Below, in pieces: positions 14,516-21,213 of a stretch of 21,213 nucleotides of DNA. The stretch is taken from UHGV virus genome UHGV-0220583, one strand, 5' to 3'. A program made the translations under genes and the position numbers. The DNA is from a virus. The stretch's first letter is position 1; each line of letters opens with the position of its first letter. The notes under the pieces are model-generated. The model was not told the DNA's origin, made no database searches, and saw nothing but the letters and a program-made list of their open reading frames with translations.

Positions 14516-15748
14516 TTATCCTTTGCGGTTAGACCAGAAGTCGGCGTTTTGTTTGTTCAGGGAAGCGATGCTGGTCATGCCCATATTTGGACGTTGTGCA
14601 TCGCCCGTGGTGCTGCGGGTGTTTCGCCCTTTGGCAATCTCTGACACAGCGTTAAACGCCATATCTACCGATTGCTTGGGCAATTTGCGGATATCCGCAT
14701 CACCGACAACCTGGCGAACCAGTGTTTTGTCAGCGGCAGCCAGCACATCACGTTTGAACGCGGTCGGTTTCACCTTACGGCTCAGATCGATACCCGGGAC
14801 GATAACCTCGGCACGATAGGCAGAGTCACCGGTAATCGTGGTTTCCTCTTCGTCGTCCTCGCCGTCGCCGGTCGGATCTTTTTTGTCTTTTTCGTCAGGC
14901 TTATTGTCGTTATCGCCCGTCGCAGTTCCTTCGAGCTTAGCCAGCAGGGCTTTGAGCAAGGTTTTGATATCGTCCTCGCCGTCGCCGGTTGGATCTCCGC
15001 CCATTTCCGGCTTTTTGTCCGGCAATGGTTGCTGCGGTGAAAGGTTAATGTTGAGGTTAACGCCGCTCGGCAGATCCCCTTCGTCACCCGTTACCGCCGC
15101 TGGCGCAGAGTCCAGCAGTTCGTTCATGGTGTCAGCGTCACCCGTTTTGATGGCCGTGCGCATGCGGGTCCACCAGCTTTTCTTTTGATTTGCCATTGTG
15201 TCTCTGTCTCCAATTGCACAACGATTTCCGGCTCTGCCTTTAGGGACAAGAGCCACATGGTTTCCGGTAATATCGACCTGCTCGGCTTTACCTGGCTCGG
15301 CCTGCTCGTACTCCGCGTCATAGCCGCACGACACTTCACGCAGGCCATCTTCGATAAGCTGAATGGCGTTTTCGTCTTTGACGATAAGGTCAGCCAGCAT
15401 CAAATCAGACTGCTCACCCGTCCCGCGCCGGACATTCTGGAGGTGCCCGACAGCAAGCTCTTTCCAGTTCTCGGGATTTACCAGCCGCACATTCCCGTTT
15501 TCATCTTCAGGATGCAGGATCGTGATGCTCATCCCTTCGAATGAGGCGAGCGTGGCGGGATGGAATACCTGCTCAGGAGAGCGCGTTACGACTATCTCAC
15601 CGAACTTATCGGGTTTCAGTTTTGGCAGGTCATCAGCACCATAGAGCTGCTTACCTGTTCGTCCTATCGGCACGTCTCTGCACAGCAACGAGCCGTCAGC
15701 AAGCTGATAGCGGGTTTCCCCCAGTCGGGTATTGAAAAAATATTTCAT
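14516..15748 (-). CDS. putative prohead scaffold / protease-like protein with acidic repeats
   Basis: 410 aa ORF between the MuF-like and capsid genes; central region is highly acidic with a duplicated DPTGDGEDD motif. Confidence 0.5.
   Translation of the reverse strand: MKYFFNTRLGETRYQLADGSLLCRDVPIGRTGKQLYGADDLPKLKPDKFGEIVVTRSPEQVFHPATLASFEGMSITILHPEDENGNVRLVNPENWKELAVGHLQNVRRGTGEQSDLMLADLIVKDENAIQLIEDGLREVSCGYDAEYEQAEPGKAEQVDITGNHVALVPKGRAGNRCAIGDRDTMANQKKSWWTRMRTAIKTGDADTMNELLDSAPAAVTGDEGDLPSGVNLNINLSPQQPLPDKKPEMGGDPTGDGEDDIKTLLKALLAKLEGTATGDNDNKPDEKDKKDPTGDGEDDEEETTITGDSAYRAEVIVPGIDLSRKVKPTAFKRDVLAAADKTLVRQVVGDADIRKLPKQSVDMAFNAVSEIAKGRNTRSTTGDAQRPNMGMTSIASLNKQNADFWSNRKG
14854..14996. repeat. 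intragenic 26-bp direct repeat, two copies 117 bp apart
   Basis: cgtcctcgccgtcgccggtcggatct at 14854..14879 and cgtcctcgccgtcgccggttggatct at 14971..14996 (one mismatch); both encode DPTGDGEDD on the minus strand. Confidence 0.7.
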
Positions 15749-16536: not shown

Positions 16537-17854
16537 TCTCTATGTCCTCGTCGGTAATGGATGCCCCGATGCCGGTTACGTCAGAATTTTCGCGCAAATC
16601 GGTCATAGCGGCTTTCAGTGTCATCAGACCATCACCCAGCGCCGTACTGATTGCGTTGGTAGTGTTTAACGCCACCGTTGAGCGATCGACATCAGACATT
16701 TGCCAGAGCGGGTTAAACTCAAACGTGAAATCGTCCGGCAGCGGCTTACCGAGTTCCGAGCGGTGCATAATGTCCAGTATCCGGCGCATCGGCATCCGTA
16801 AGCGGCGCTCCTGCAATGAGCTCACCCGGTCGTAATAGTTGGCGAGGTCTGCATCACCAGTAGAGAAGCCTTTCGGGGATTGACCGAACAGGCGTACCAG
16901 CGGGATACCAACGGCACCGCTGATCTGCTCAGCAAACTGCGAAAGAATGTCATCCAGACCACTAAAACTGTACTGGTGGGTTTCGAACTTATCCCGCGAG
17001 TCCATGAGCGTCATACCTTCATTGCTCTGGAACTGGCGGATCAGGTCGATGTTCTTCAGCAACGCTTCGAACGCCGGGCCTCCAAGCGCGATAAGCTCGC
17101 GCAACTTCTCCACGCTATAGGTACGCAGATGCGCTTTATAGACCAGCTGCGCCGCGCCGACAGTGGCGCTATCGAACGCAGTAAGCCGATCCCAGATACG
17201 CTCTACAACCGACATTCCCCATTCGTTTTCGGTCATCTTCTGCTGGAATGGCAGCGTGACGCCATCAAAGCGGATCAGGCGGCTGTGATGGATGCGCCAG
17301 GCCGGAATGCCCGTTGCGGTGGTCACCACGTCGTAAAACTCAGGCTTGCCGAGGTCCGGCCCCATCTCTTTAATGCGGCGTGTCAGCACCGGGTTAATCA
17401 TCCAGCGGTCGAGCGGGAGAATGCCCTTAAACTTGCCCTCGCCAATGGTTTCGAGTCGCAGCGGGGTCATTGGTGCTTGCCCCTCGATCATGATGAAGCC
17501 GACCGCGCCGCCGTAGAGACGCGACCATTTCAGCACGTCGTTCAGCGCATCCCAGATCTGCAACTCATCCAGTTGCGCTTCGAGGGTGCCACGGTCTTTG
17601 GCGTCAATCTCCGAAGTGATGCGAATGCCCTTTCGGGTCATATCGTCCGGGATAGCGTCGACCGCTTCACCGATAACCCACGAACCGCGATATGACCATT
17701 CCACCAGCATGCGGTTGCGGCTGGTGAAGTTCGCCCGGTAGGTCGATGCTGAATGCTGGTTAGGCGTCTGCATCCCAACGCGGGCGACGAAGTTCTCGTA
17801 GCCGTCAGCGGTGGCCTGTGCCGTTCGCTGAGAGGATTGCTTGTTTCGTGCCAT
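16388..17854 (-). CDS. portal protein
   Basis: 488 aa ORF whose ATG overlaps the terminase large subunit stop (TGATG); acidic disordered C-terminus; followed by the MuF-like gene. Confidence 0.7.
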   Translation of the reverse strand: MARNKQSSQRTAQATADGYENFVARVGMQTPNQHSASTYRANFTSRNRMLVEWSYRGSWVIGEAVDAIPDDMTRKGIRITSEIDAKDRGTLEAQLDELQIWDALNDVLKWSRLYGGAVGFIMIEGQAPMTPLRLETIGEGKFKGILPLDRWMINPVLTRRIKEMGPDLGKPEFYDVVTTATGIPAWRIHHSRLIRFDGVTLPFQQKMTENEWGMSVVERIWDRLTAFDSATVGAAQLVYKAHLRTYSVEKLRELIALGGPAFEALLKNIDLIRQFQSNEGMTLMDSRDKFETHQYSFSGLDDILSQFAEQISGAVGIPLVRLFGQSPKGFSTGDADLANYYDRVSSLQERRLRMPMRRILDIMHRSELGKPLPDDFTFEFNPLWQMSDVDRSTVALNTTNAISTALGDGLMTLKAAMTDLRENSDVTGIGASITDEDIENAEDEAPPGIGELGDKPPESPGGDPISNEPTADSAGGRGYRKWALRWFK

Positions 17855-19482
17855 CAGGCCTGTCTCCCTAGCAGCTCCCAGATGTTCAGGGCTGAATTCA
17901 TTGGCGCGTAGCTGATCATCACCGAGTCGGCGAGGTTCGGCGACTTGGTGCCATCAGGCTGTTTATCAACAACGATTTTCCCCACGCCATTAATGGAGTA
18001 GGTCGGCTGCGACAGCTCAATGATGAGTTTGTCTTTGCTCGCCATGGCGCTGCTGATTGAGATGATTTCGTCCGGGTTGTAGGCCATGCCCTCAACCACG
18101 GCGCGATAGGTGTTCTGGAAAAGCTTGCGTAGCCACCACCAGCTCTGGGCCTTGGCGTTGGCGAAGAAGTCCTTGTTCAGGCGTGCGGCCTGTCCGTTGT
18201 CCCCGCGCACCGCTTCATCGTCCGGATCAAATACCGCGCCGCTACCACGAAACGGTGTGGCGAGTATTGACGGTCGGCGCGCTGCGTAACGCAGTTCGTT
18301 GATGGCGCGCGCATCGCCGCGAACGCCAGCACCCAGGCCGTCCTCGTCGAAGCGAAACTCTTCGAGGTTGTCCTGTTCGCAAAAGCCGAAGACCTTCTCA
18401 ACAGACTGGTAAATGTCGCTGCCAACGCCGGACCATTCACGCACGTTCTCCAGGAGGAAGCCGTGACGGGTCGAAAAGGCGTTTTTGTCCCGGCCTTCGT
18501 CGGCGACGTCCATCGCGCCCAGGCGTTTGCCCGTTGGCTGGATGCCCAGCTTAATATGCGCGTCGACGGCAGCCTGTACCCAGTCGGACGGGATCAGGAC
18601 GCCTTCCGCAGATGCGCTGTAGTTCAGGTCAAGTTCCTGCGCCACCACCACCGGATTGTCGATTTTCTCGCACTCCCTGCGATACCACTCTTCATCCTTG
18701 CGAGGATCATCCCGCCAGTGGAATGTGAATACCGGTATCTTCCCGCCGTGACGCTTCTGCGCGAACGGGTTCGCCATGCCGTTAACCGAACTCAGGTCGA
18801 TACGGCAGCGGGTGGTTTGCGACAGCGCCGCGTCAATCAGCAGAGGACGCTGGAGGAATGCAGCCTCATCCACCAGGTAGAGCGTGGTACGGTCACCACG
18901 ACCGATATTGTCGCCAGCCTCGCCTTTGATGACCGCGCCAGTATCGGGAAACTCAACGCGCATGTACGGGGCGTGCTTCTTCTCGTCCCACGAACCGCGA
19001 AACTCTACAGGTAGTGTTTCCACGAACTTGCGCGCCTTCCAGAACAGCGCCTTCGGGTCTCCGGTGCTGTCGACGTATTCCTCTTTACGGGAGCCGAAGC
19101 CGATGACCATTTCTTTGTTGAAGAGGCAGAGCGAACAGGCCAGCCCGATCGCCGTCCAGCTGAGCCCCATTTCGCGGCTCTTTTCGGTGATGCCGTTCTC
19201 CAGCCGTTCGCGCCGCTCCATGATCCAGTGAATCCACTCTTCCTGTTTCGGAAACAGCAGAAAAGGGATGGTGACCGGCAGGCCATAATCGATGTTACGC
19301 GGGTCAGTAGTCATCCCCCAGTCGATGATGAACTGTGCCGGGTTGGTGCGGTAAAACTGCTTTAGCGCTGGCAGCATTTCAGGGTTCTGGCGAATGCGCT
19401 GTAAGCGCTCCATCCGCCATTCAAAAACCATCTGGTAATCAGGGTTTCTGAAATCGAATTCAAACGGGAGAGGCATGATCAC
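17854..19482 (-). CDS. terL: terminase large subunit
   Basis: 542 aa ORF with a Walker B-like LYLVDEAAF and a deviant Walker A-like [11 protein letters not shown] in the N-terminal half; ATGA overlap with the small subunit gene; followed by portal. Confidence 0.8.
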
Positions 19483-19952
19483 CCCATCATCTTGCGGTAA
19501 ATCTCTGCGGCCTGATCTGCAGTGAGATTGGTCGTCTCGGTCTTGATCGGGCCGCCATCCTTGCCGGTGCTCTCAACCTTCAGCTTATTGGTGTAAGCGT
19601 CGCCAACCTCTTTCGCGGCCTGTTCAATCAGCTGCGCCGTCAGGGAGAAGTTTTTCATCCCCTCGGTTTTGGTTGCCATGCGGTCAAGCACGCGGAGGCG
19701 ATAGGATTTGTTCGCGATCGGAATGTCGCTGGTTTCGGTCAGGAACCGTTCGCGCGTCGCGTGGAACATCTCGATCCACTTTTTGGCGAGCGTCTTACCG
19801 CTGGCCTTCGTGGGGTCGTGAGATTCAGCCTGCTGGCGGGTGATCTTGATCCCAAATTCTTTTTGGACAGCCTCGACCACCTGCGATGGCGTGTCATAGC
19901 ACGCAAGCGACTGAATGATGAAGGCTTTCACATCAGGTTTTAATGCAGCCAT
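19479..19952 (-). CDS. terS: terminase small subunit (putative)
   Basis: 157 aa ORF immediately upstream of, and translationally coupled to, the large subunit gene; N-terminus [34 protein letters not shown] resembles small-subunit proteins of enterobacterial prophages as I recall them. Confidence 0.55.
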
Positions 19953-19983
19953 AAATCACCATTCGTCTTATACAGTCCAGTAT

Positions 19984-20604
19984 TTAAGCCAGTCGCAGCA
20001 TGCACGTCCCGCACGCTCTGGCAATATCGAGATGAGCAACCTCCGCTGGCTGATTCGCCGCATCAATCATTTCCTGCACGTCCCGGCTCGCACCGTAACG
20101 GCGAACCACGCCCACAAACTCTTCCACGTCATGGCCGCGCAGCTTCAGCTTTGGCTGCCCTTCCTGCGTGAACTTCGGCGCACCAAATTCATCTGTCGCT
20201 TGGCAGATGTGATAAAGCTCGTGCTCTATCAGCGCGCAGAATTCCAGATCGGAACATTGCGAGCAGTAATCGGCGGCCAGCGTGATGATGAACTGCGGCA
20301 CCCTGCCGAACCATTCATACATCTGCTGCTCCATCCGCGCTTTCTGCCAGCCTCCGGCCCGCATTGCCACTTCTTCCGCCTGCCCCAGCACGGAGCGCCC
20401 TTTCTTCTCGAAAGCGTTCGACGCCCAGAGAAAGCACAGATCCGCTTCAAGCAAATGCTGATGGTCAGGGTTGTAGAGGTCGCCCTCATCGCTCAGGATG
20501 TGCTGATTCAGCCACTCGCCAACGTCACTGGCGGGCATTATGCTGATGTACGGCTTCGGGTCAGGTGGCATCGTAAAATGCGCTGGTGGGTGTGGTCTGT
20601 TCAT
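19984..20604 (-). CDS. HExxH-motif protein with two CxxC motifs, putative zinc metallopeptidase-like, function unknown
   Basis: 206 aa ORF containing IEHELYHI (HExxH) flanked by CSQC and CGTC. Sits between the lysis genes and the terminase. Start at 20604 has no strong SD, so the start is uncertain. Confidence 0.5.
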   Translation of the reverse strand: MNRPHPPAHFTMPPDPKPYISIMPASDVGEWLNQHILSDEGDLYNPDHQHLLEADLCFLWASNAFEKKGRSVLGQAEEVAMRAGGWQKARMEQQMYEWFGRVPQFIITLAADYCSQCSDLEFCALIEHELYHICQATDEFGAPKFTQEGQPKLKLRGHDVEEFVGVVRRYGASRDVQEMIDAANQPAEVAHLDIARACGTCMLRLA

Positions 20605-20660
20605 GAATAATTCCAGTGCTCCATTATCGAAGCCCCTCAGTGTGAAGGGCTTCTGTAATG

Positions 20661-20846
20661 TCAGTCCCGGACGAACGTAACCTTTGTGGTTATCATTCGC
20701 CGTACAAGGCGCGTCGCTTCGCGTTGCATTTCATCAATTACTTTTGGCGTCAGCGGCTGACGCGCATATTTGCGCTCAATCTCTGCAAAAATCCCGTTCA
20801 GCACCTCGCTGTCTGGTGGGATAACTTCAACGTTTAATCGTGCCAT
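20661..20846 (-). CDS. small hypothetical protein
   Basis: 61 aa ORF; ATG at 20846 has AGGA 7 nt upstream and overlaps the Rz1-like 3' end by 20 nt. Confidence 0.4.
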   Translation of the reverse strand: MARLNVEVIPPDSEVLNGIFAEIERKYARQPLTPKVIDEMQREATRLVRRMITTKVTFVRD

Positions 20847-21105
20847 CGGTTTGTCCTGCCCTGTTGTTCTCGAAAGTCCTGATATCAGCCTTATCCCTGT
20901 TGCACTGTGCTAACGCTGACAACAACGCAACATTCAGGTTAAGGCTTGCTCCCCACGTAAACGGATCGGGTAAATCTGGCTGGGGTGTTTCAGCCGTCAG
21001 GTTGGCTGGTAACGGAACCACCGGAACTGGAACGTAGACCGTTCGCGTAGTCGTGCAGCCGCTTAACTGCGCCAGAAGGCACAAAACGAACAGCACAATC
21101 ATCAT
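20827..21105 (-). CDS. o-spanin, Rz1-like outer membrane lipoprotein
   Basis: ORF-track ORF 20827..21171; the internal tandem ATG at 21105/21102 gives MMIVLFVLCLLAQLSGC, a lipoprotein signal with lipobox L-S-G-C, followed by a Pro-rich mature region. It overlaps the Rz-like frame and extends past its stop. Confidence 0.55.
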   Translation of the reverse strand: MMIVLFVLCLLAQLSGCTTTRTVYVPVPVVPLPANLTAETPQPDLPDPFTWGASLNLNVALLSALAQCNRDKADIRTFENNRAGQTDGTIKR

Positions 21106-21213
21106 CCGCAACAGCAGCCTTGATATCGTTCTCGGTTCTCTGTGACTCCAGTGTGATCTGCTGTTTTGCATGCTGGTTAGCCTCCAGAACTGTATTGACG
21201 ATTTGCAGTGATT
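20990..21213 (-). CDS. i-spanin, Rz-like, C-terminal part (N-terminus beyond window end)
   Basis: Hand translation of the minus strand from 21211 gives an open frame SLQIVNTVLEANQHAKQQITLESQRTENDIKAAVADDDCAVRFVPSGAVKRLHDYANGLRSSSGGSVTSQPDG with stop at 20990..20992. Not in the ORF track because it has no start in the window. Confidence 0.5.
   Translation of the reverse strand, partial: SLQIVNTVLEANQHAKQQITLESQRTENDIKAAVADDDCAVRFVPSGAVKRLHDYANGLRSSSGGSVTSQPDG

Follow-up and report, generated by a model that had tools for sequence, protein, structure and literature searches.

The closest described relatives of the protein considered here belong to PF18894, a family of putative phage metallopeptidases with 3,501 clusters when grouped at 90% identity and 899 representatives at 50%. 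Among the clusters that bear a name, many are called "putative metallopeptidase," and current labels within the family vary between "metallopeptidase," "transposase," "toxin," and "prohead protease candidate." Members occur in prophages of Enterobacterales, Pseudomonas, Acinetobacter, Vibrio, Burkholderia, and alpha- and betaproteobacteria. One of them, gp46 of Vibrio phage XM1, has been offered as a candidate prohead protease, based on its similarity to Spartan and on the absence from the map of the initial 30 residues of the XM1 major capsid protein (MCP) (PMC10457771). Searches of the literature for PF18894, DUF2280, COG4900, and phage metalloproteases together with terminases retrieved no functional study. 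Here, we analyze a member of this family encoded in a 21,213-nucleotide (nt) stretch of virus genome UHGV-0220583 (the window). The 206-residue protein, referred to below as the zincin, is encoded on the minus strand (19984..20604), as are all genes of the region, and its gene lies directly upstream of one for a small terminase subunit (TerS) of the DUF2280 type. The pairing of zincin and DUF2280 genes is near-obligate and independent of the large terminase subunit (TerL), the portal and capsid type, and the upstream context.

By its sequence, the 206-residue protein is a new member of a widespread and already named phage family of zinc protease-like proteins. It matched the PF18894 profile with 148.1 bits (E = 2e-43; cutoff, 23.7), and its residues 30 to 184 covered profile positions 2 to 134 of 134. 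With a score so far above the cutoff, the HExxH sequence (H128-E129-L-Y-H132, within IEHELYHI at residues 126 to 133) is no chance motif. Two CxxC motifs are also present, CSQC at residues 114 to 117 and CGTC at residues 198 to 201, the latter five residues short of the C-terminal end. The protein also falls into PHROG 513 (2.6e-97), which is labeled "transposase." NCBIfam yielded no match, PADLOC no meaningful match, and the PDB no match by either sequence or profile. An earlier note on this DNA had placed an HExxH-encoding open reading frame (ORF) of 206 residues and a second one of 61 residues between the spanin and terminase genes, and had called the larger product metallopeptidase-like. 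Coordinates and motifs were found as described, and the profile search that the note had proposed matched a phage metallopeptidase family over its full length and no HNH family; the predicted fold, which resembles that of SprT and Spartan, agrees with this assignment. The doubt expressed there about the start codon can be dropped. ATG 20604 is the first start codon past a stop, and the N-terminal R3-P4-x-P6-P7 sequence that it adds is kept in 436 to 469 of 489 aligned family members (the set used for residue counts throughout), so we regard the start as settled; the PHROG 513 alignment spans residues 2 to 206. Prophages of Escherichia coli are up to 98.9% identical to window positions 19400 to 21213, with RefSeq labels of "putative metallopeptidase" and "DUF2280 domain-containing protein" for the two genes.

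The DUF2280 gene (19479..19952, minus strand; Pfam DUF2280, 5e-50) begins 31 nt past the zincin stop codon, and its own stop codon overlaps the TerL ORF. We gathered 165 loci with zincin homologs from IMG/VR, GTDB genomes, phage records, and metagenome contigs, 164 of which included downstream DNA. A DUF2280 ORF began 14 to 59 nt (mode, 32) past the zincin stop in 162 of these 164 loci. The gap between the two genes was likewise free of other genes in 162/164, and one of the two exceptions contained an HNH gene. The surroundings of the pair are far more variable: TerL ORFs at these loci formed 6 clusters without detectable mutual similarity, and the ORFs immediately upstream of the zincin formed 73 clusters, including lysis, Rha-like, methylase, RusA, and replication genes. 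The order was also kept at 44 to 50% identity in Sphingomonas, Ensifer, and two metagenome contigs or prophages, one a contig with a protein listed by NCBI under Sideroxydans and the other a prophage whose zincin bears an N-terminal extension. Within the phage collection, zincin and DUF2280 counts by genus were almost the same, for example in Acinetobacter (62/62), Pseudomonas (44/44), Vibrio (8/8), and Burkholderia (7/7). We found no mention of this close pairing in the searchable literature. Because the zincin gene is nearly always directly upstream of a DUF2280 TerS gene, a packaging helper is more likely than optional cargo.

We also considered HNH proteins as a conserved third partner. 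The HNH genes beside some zincin homologs are either homing endonuclease-like (NUMOD4 plus HNH_3), as in a Burkholderia phage where such a gene is inserted after the zincin, or without a family match, and they are not conserved. Given this sporadic occurrence, the candidate was rejected.

A natural swap separates the zincin from the other packaging and head genes. We compared the head and terminase proteins of Escherichia phage vB_EcoM-606R2 and Salmonella phage SEN34 with those of the window and found 95 to 96% identity for TerL, 94% for the portal, 86 to 94% for the Mu F-like protein, 92 to 96% for the DUF2213 protein, 84 to 94% for the cement protein, and 87 to 97% for the MCP. In both phages, the TerS gene directly follows Rz, and neither tblastn nor a six-frame search with the family profile found a zincin homolog in either genome. 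The TerS of 606R2 is a Terminase_2 protein (PF03592, 5.9e-31), and in both phages TerS resembles the window DUF2280 protein in the C-terminal tail only (39 residues at 64% identity in 606R2 and 23 residues at 61% in SEN34). It follows from this swap that the DUF2280 protein is the small terminase and has a modular tail corresponding to the type of TerL, that the zincin travels with the N-terminal (DNA recognition) part of DUF2280, and that this TerL, portal, and capsid can do without the zincin. The earlier note had taken both ORFs for cargo that packaging does not need. This description suits the optional 61-residue ORF; it does not suit the zincin gene, which is paired with DUF2280 almost throughout and is lost along with it.

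As judged from these alignments, the DUF2280 tail looks like an exchangeable unit that follows the type of TerL and presumably binds TerL. The stretch encoding its last 39 residues (19479-19595) is 64% identical at the protein level to the tail of an otherwise unrelated Terminase_2 protein in locus L168 (3048-3620), which precedes a 96% identical TerL.

The same swap bears on the proposal made for XM1 gp46, by which the zincin would be packed into the procapsid as a prohead (capsid maturation) protease and cut the scaffold and the MCP N terminus. Besides the published proposal, this reading draws on the 54% identity between gp46 and the window zincin, on the shared gene order, and on the capsid module of the window, which is of the XM1/E217 type. 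However, 606R2 and SEN34 carry nearly the same MCP, DUF2213, and portal proteins and have no zincin homolog, and the zincin-DUF2280 pair is found with at least three MCP families (PF09950, the SPP1 Gp13-like PF20036, and the DUF6260 family PF19774). The zincin gene moreover precedes TerS, outside the portal-MCP interval, and the canonical head position is taken by the DUF2213 protein (14516-15748, between the Mu F-like and capsid genes), which matches "head maturation protease" PHROGs (1e-70 and 2e-52). We consider a prohead protease quite improbable. DUF2213 is still listed as uncharacterized in Pfam despite these PHROG matches.

Alternatively, the zincin could be a late protease directed against a host or satellite protein, for example a factor that senses or redirects the DUF2280 TerS; it would then be kept beside TerS, as the threat would concern that type of TerS specifically. 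Such an anti-defense or anti-hijacking role accords with the lack of zincin in phages whose head and TerL are the same but whose TerS differs, and with DUF2280 working without a zincin in Salinibacter phages. It accords less well with the near-universal presence of the zincin alongside DUF2280 in Proteobacteria-infecting phages, as counter-defense genes typically show a patchy spread. PADLOC provided no match, and the architecture is not moron-like: the gene lies on the same strand as its neighbors, with no promoter-like site found upstream and with a hairpin directly before the ribosome-binding site. We judge this explanation to be rather unlikely.

Conservation of individual residues points to a zinc hydrolase. 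Among the aligned family members, H128 is invariant (489/489), E129 and H132 are each present in 488/489, and a downstream motif is formed by H158 (487/489), D159 (479/489), and E161 (484/489). The complete pattern HEHHDE (positions 128/129/132/158/159/161) occurs in 472/489 members, and all six residues are present in the window protein. Two N-terminal histidines, H48 (485/489) and H50 (481/489), are conserved to a similar degree, as are the C-terminal cysteines C198 (488/489) and C201 (472/489). This cysteine pair always lies 0 to 8 residues from the C terminus (mode, 5), with 3 to 8 residues following C198 in almost all members; a few proteins, including XM1 gp46, stop just past the first cysteine of the motif. 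The upstream CSQC is not a family feature, because C114 is found in only 292/489 members (60%) and C117 in only 206/489 (42%). The zinc-binding subdomain that had been pictured from the two CxxC motifs does not survive these counts. About half of the same-amino-acid codon pairs in the zincin gene differ synonymously, and the protein is thus under purifying selection.

An AlphaFold model of the zincin, built from a 136-sequence alignment, reached a predicted local distance difference test (pLDDT) score of 91.2 and a predicted template modeling score (pTM) of 0.83, with low confidence at residues 190 to 206. This model was used rather than one from the single sequence (pLDDT, 38). It predicts the elements of a zincin fold, namely, a mixed beta-sheet, a backing helix, an active-site helix with HExxH, and then a helix with the candidate third ligand. 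Foldseek searches with the model retrieved no PDB match below an E value of 0.2 and, within BFVD, only members of the PF18894 family. Mean-field coevolution analysis of 488 sequences (Meff, 222) yielded contacts that set the HExxH helix against helix 160-170 (E127-Y170 and Y131-G165). L43, N45, and D47, which just precede H48 and H50, made contact with both helices, with N45 and D47 paired to E127, Y131, G165, and Y170. Signals for docking of the C-terminal cysteine tail were weak and unreliable (H158-G199, 1.13; V160-C201, 0.98).

N-terminal extensions of 40 to 117 residues are present in 37/489 members. Most fit a helix-turn-helix (HTH) pattern, and some match HTH_Tnp_1, HTH_8, MerR, or HTH_28/29/23/17 weakly. 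We asked whether the extension is a displaced DUF2280 domain and rejected this idea at an hhalign probability of 1%. The HTH-like extension is probably what seeded the "transposase" label of PHROG 513, which also appears in the records of ZF40, ENT47670, and phiPSA1, because no transposase domain exists in these proteins. Only PF18894 was found and no catalytic domain of the DDE, HUH, or Ser/Tyr recombinase type, while HTH_Tnp_1-type matches (best, 4.6e-4) were confined to the optional extension in 5/123 members. Lysis timing, a role put forward in the earlier note, has in its favor that the zincin gene follows the spanin genes in the window. Many homologs, however, are preceded by replication, methylase, or RusA genes and lack lysis genes in their vicinity; such a role is unlikely because a mosaic boundary separates the lysis block from the zincin gene. 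Taken together, a transposase or a lysis-timing regulator is hardly credible.

A nonproteolytic function deserves separate mention. The zincin might work as a metal-dependent nuclease, process ends, or bind zinc and serve the basic TerS as an adaptor or chaperone; its role would then resemble that of HNH proteins that help certain terminases. The opposite charges of the two proteins (isoelectric points of 5.1 for the zincin and 9.1 for TerS) would suit such a role, as would the weak HTH matches within the N-terminal extensions. The peptidase motif is nonetheless complete, with its catalytic Glu retained in all but one of the 489 sequences; no HNH or nuclease family was matched, and proteases were the top structural neighbors. 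YbeY-type enzymes possess a different His motif. On balance, we find a nonproteolytic function unlikely.

The reading that we favor, and hold to be evenly balanced between right and wrong, is that the zincin is a zinc hydrolase that serves as the dedicated partner of the DUF2280-type TerS and acts at packaging initiation. As such a partner, it would be part of the DNA packaging module rather than a moron. The proposed enzyme would be small, acidic, and soluble, of the minimal-zincin type, with zinc bound by H128 and H132 from the active-site helix and by H158 or E161 from the next helix, and with E129 as the general base. A family-specific N-terminal subdomain would bring the H48/H50 segment up against both helices. 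The short, flexible C-terminal tail with its invariant C198 may cap the zinc and hold the enzyme latent, as in the cysteine switch described for the minigluzincin-like protease Wss1 (PMC4559962); the position of C198 near the C terminus in almost all members and the low model confidence of the tail are consistent with latency. Encoded just upstream of the basic TerS, the zincin would act by cleavage or turnover, either of TerS itself or of proteins that occupy the packaging site. A stronger form, in which the DUF2280-type TerS needs a protease held latent by a cysteine switch to start packaging, whether by remodeling or turnover of the TerS ring or by clearing of the packaging site, strikes us as possible but doubtful. 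If true, the zincin would be the first protease that is an integral terminase accessory. A protease acting in packaging initiation would be a new part of a machine that has been studied in depth; otherwise, the zincin would be an ordinary conserved accessory. In either case, the finding that the zincin is tied to a single family of small terminases, rather than to lysis, head type, or TerL, narrows the search for a role and corrects current labels.

Several points weigh against a dedicated packaging partner. Adjacency and co-occurrence are no proof of a physical or functional link, and no experimental data on any PF18894 member were found in the searchable literature. DUF2280 was matched by 181 Salinibacter phage records, none of which is among the zincin matches, and a Brevundimonas prophage has a zincin ahead of a 91-residue ORF that is not DUF2280; owing to these deviations, the pairing is not absolute. 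In Salinibacter phage 4_20 (locus L166, 2932-3980), a 172-residue multi-pass membrane protein is encoded directly upstream of DUF2280. Recombination between the paired genes also occurs, as in locus L063, where the zincin is 98% identical to that of the window and TerS only 72%. The acidic zincin has no recognizable DNA-binding part, save for the HTH-like N-terminal extension noted above in 37/489 members. Finally, the linkage may have a cis (pac site) reason, such as a lineage-specific site. Synonymous variation was 0.37 to 0.66 along the zincin and DUF2280 genes, and no region of reduced variation was found; a conserved cis site inside the zincin gene was on this basis rejected as the cause of linkage.

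The empty zincin-TerS gap can be contrasted with the gap between TerS and TerL, which admits reverse-strand morons in related prophages. Two close relatives of the window have reverse-strand ORFs at this position, of 86 residues in locus L027 (6151-6411) and 120 residues in locus L069 (6160-6522), which look like morons in an unusual place. An E. coli record of the TerS-TerL region names a "HEAT repeat domain-containing protein," possibly the 86-residue ORF. In an Ewingella sp. (locus L126, 5644-7731), the N-terminal domain of DUF2280 (residues 1 to 87) is fused to approximately 600 residues without a family match, which may reflect a degraded prophage or a new fusion. We had considered this ORF as a DUF2280-TerL fusion that would prove the TerS role and rejected it because the fused part is not TerL.

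TerL itself (17854..19482, minus strand) had no Pfam match at an E value of ≤0.1 and was recognized through PHROG 2 ("terminase large subunit," 2.8e-31) and annotated close relatives. It aligns from residue 3 onward with the TerL annotated in vB_EcoM-606R2, at 96% identity. The longest ORF opens with GTG two codons ahead of the start used by homologs, and comparison with these homologs makes M3 at 19476 the probable true start. Among the portal proteins encountered, one from a Sphingomonas prophage (locus L169, 6514-8460; 648 residues; Phage_portal_3) has an additional Pfam match to Acb1, an anti-CBASS nuclease family, which suggests a portal-Acb1 fusion.

Upstream of the zincin, the 61-residue ORF (20661..20846, minus strand) belongs to PHROG 12811 (2.1e-35), a group of unknown function, and encodes a basic product with an isoelectric point of 9.5; Pfam, NCBIfam, and PADLOC gave no match. 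The good Shine-Dalgarno sequence that had been ascribed to it is indeed present, with AGGA 7 nt before the ATG, and the beginning of the ORF shares 20 nt with the end of the Rz1/LysC ORF. The ORF was found in 33 of 69 loci with a zincin at least 91% identical, 31 of the 33 having an Rz1 match, nearly all at least 92% identical. In the sole phage record with a homolog, it lies after lysis genes and before an integrase. The 61-residue ORF is a sporadic and optional component of the mosaic block on the lysis side, with no relation to the zincin. In locus L043, a 67-residue ORF ending 269 nt ahead of the zincin gene has the final ~18 residues of the 61-residue ORF (…EATRLVRRMITTKVT…) joined to it; the N-terminal part of this 67-residue ORF resembles a small-terminase N terminus by eye only, and the whole looks like a recombination scar at a module junction. 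The adjoining lysis genes comprise an ORF with the o-spanin Rz1/LysC (20827..21171, minus strand; Pfam LysC, 3.8e-18; PHROG 456, Rz-like spanin), whose true start is probably internal, ahead of the lipobox LAQLSGC, and the 3' part of the i-spanin Rz (20990..21213, minus strand; identified by frame translation), which runs off the window. The Rz region DNA matches the annotated Rz/Rz1 genes of SfV, SfII, and SfIV.

The 56-nt spacer between the 61-residue ORF and the zincin contains a GC-rich stem-loop (20622..20660, minus strand) predicted by RNA folding; positions 20590 to 20680 fold with -34.2 kcal/mol (z = -6.7). The stem-loop is kept irrespective of the upstream gene, with compensatory changes in the stem, and other lineages have a hairpin plus a T run at its position. 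A terminator scan called no intrinsic terminator there because the U-tract is missing. A 98% match to Citrobacter phage Omnitron stops at 20660, and the stem-loop marks the left limit of the zincin-TerS block. Its function may be that of a module boundary resembling a terminator, or of an RNA or protein-binding element.

No Peptidase_M78 match, which would be expected of repressor-cleaving peptidases of the ImmA/IrrE type, was found, and the zincin lay in the late region by the terminase genes in all contexts examined. Minigluzincins (projannalysin, proabylysin, and selecase) show no detectable sequence similarity to the zincin, which lacks a scaffold of ~100 to 110 residues related to MJ0123, MJ1213, or the abylysin of Pyrococcus abyssi. 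The zincin is twice as long, with an extra N-terminal subdomain (RPxPP, W31, N45, H48, and H50) and a Cys-bearing tail, and is a phage protein, whereas minigluzincins are archaeal. The earlier note had called the protein SprT-like in flavor. At the fold level this is apt, as the protease core resembles that of SprT, Spartan, and Wss1 (WLM), but the likeness ends there: neither the SprT-like (PF10263) nor the WLM profile matched the window protein at an E value of ≤1, and weak SprT-like matches in 6/123 family members (best, 0.012) fell below the curated threshold. Unlike these proteins, the zincin has no four-Cys zinc ribbon, spaces its candidate third ligand 26 residues from HExxH, and is acidic with no evident DNA-binding module.

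HNH proteins encoded by terminase genes (e.g., HK97 gp74) offer a functional analogy only, that of a small metal-dependent accessory gene directly beside terminase. Their fold and motif are unrelated to those of the zincin, in which neither an HNH motif nor a profile match was detected. The closest correspondence is with PF18894/PHROG 513 itself. The window protein has the same length, the same HExxH, H158, D159, and E161, and the same C-terminal cysteine, with no structural difference. The "transposase" label of PHROG 513 is unsupported. XM1 gp46 ends in "...KACNG" without the second cysteine, where the window zincin has CGTC, and the XM1 gene order gp46-gp47 (DUF2280)-gp48 (TerL) is the same as in the window.

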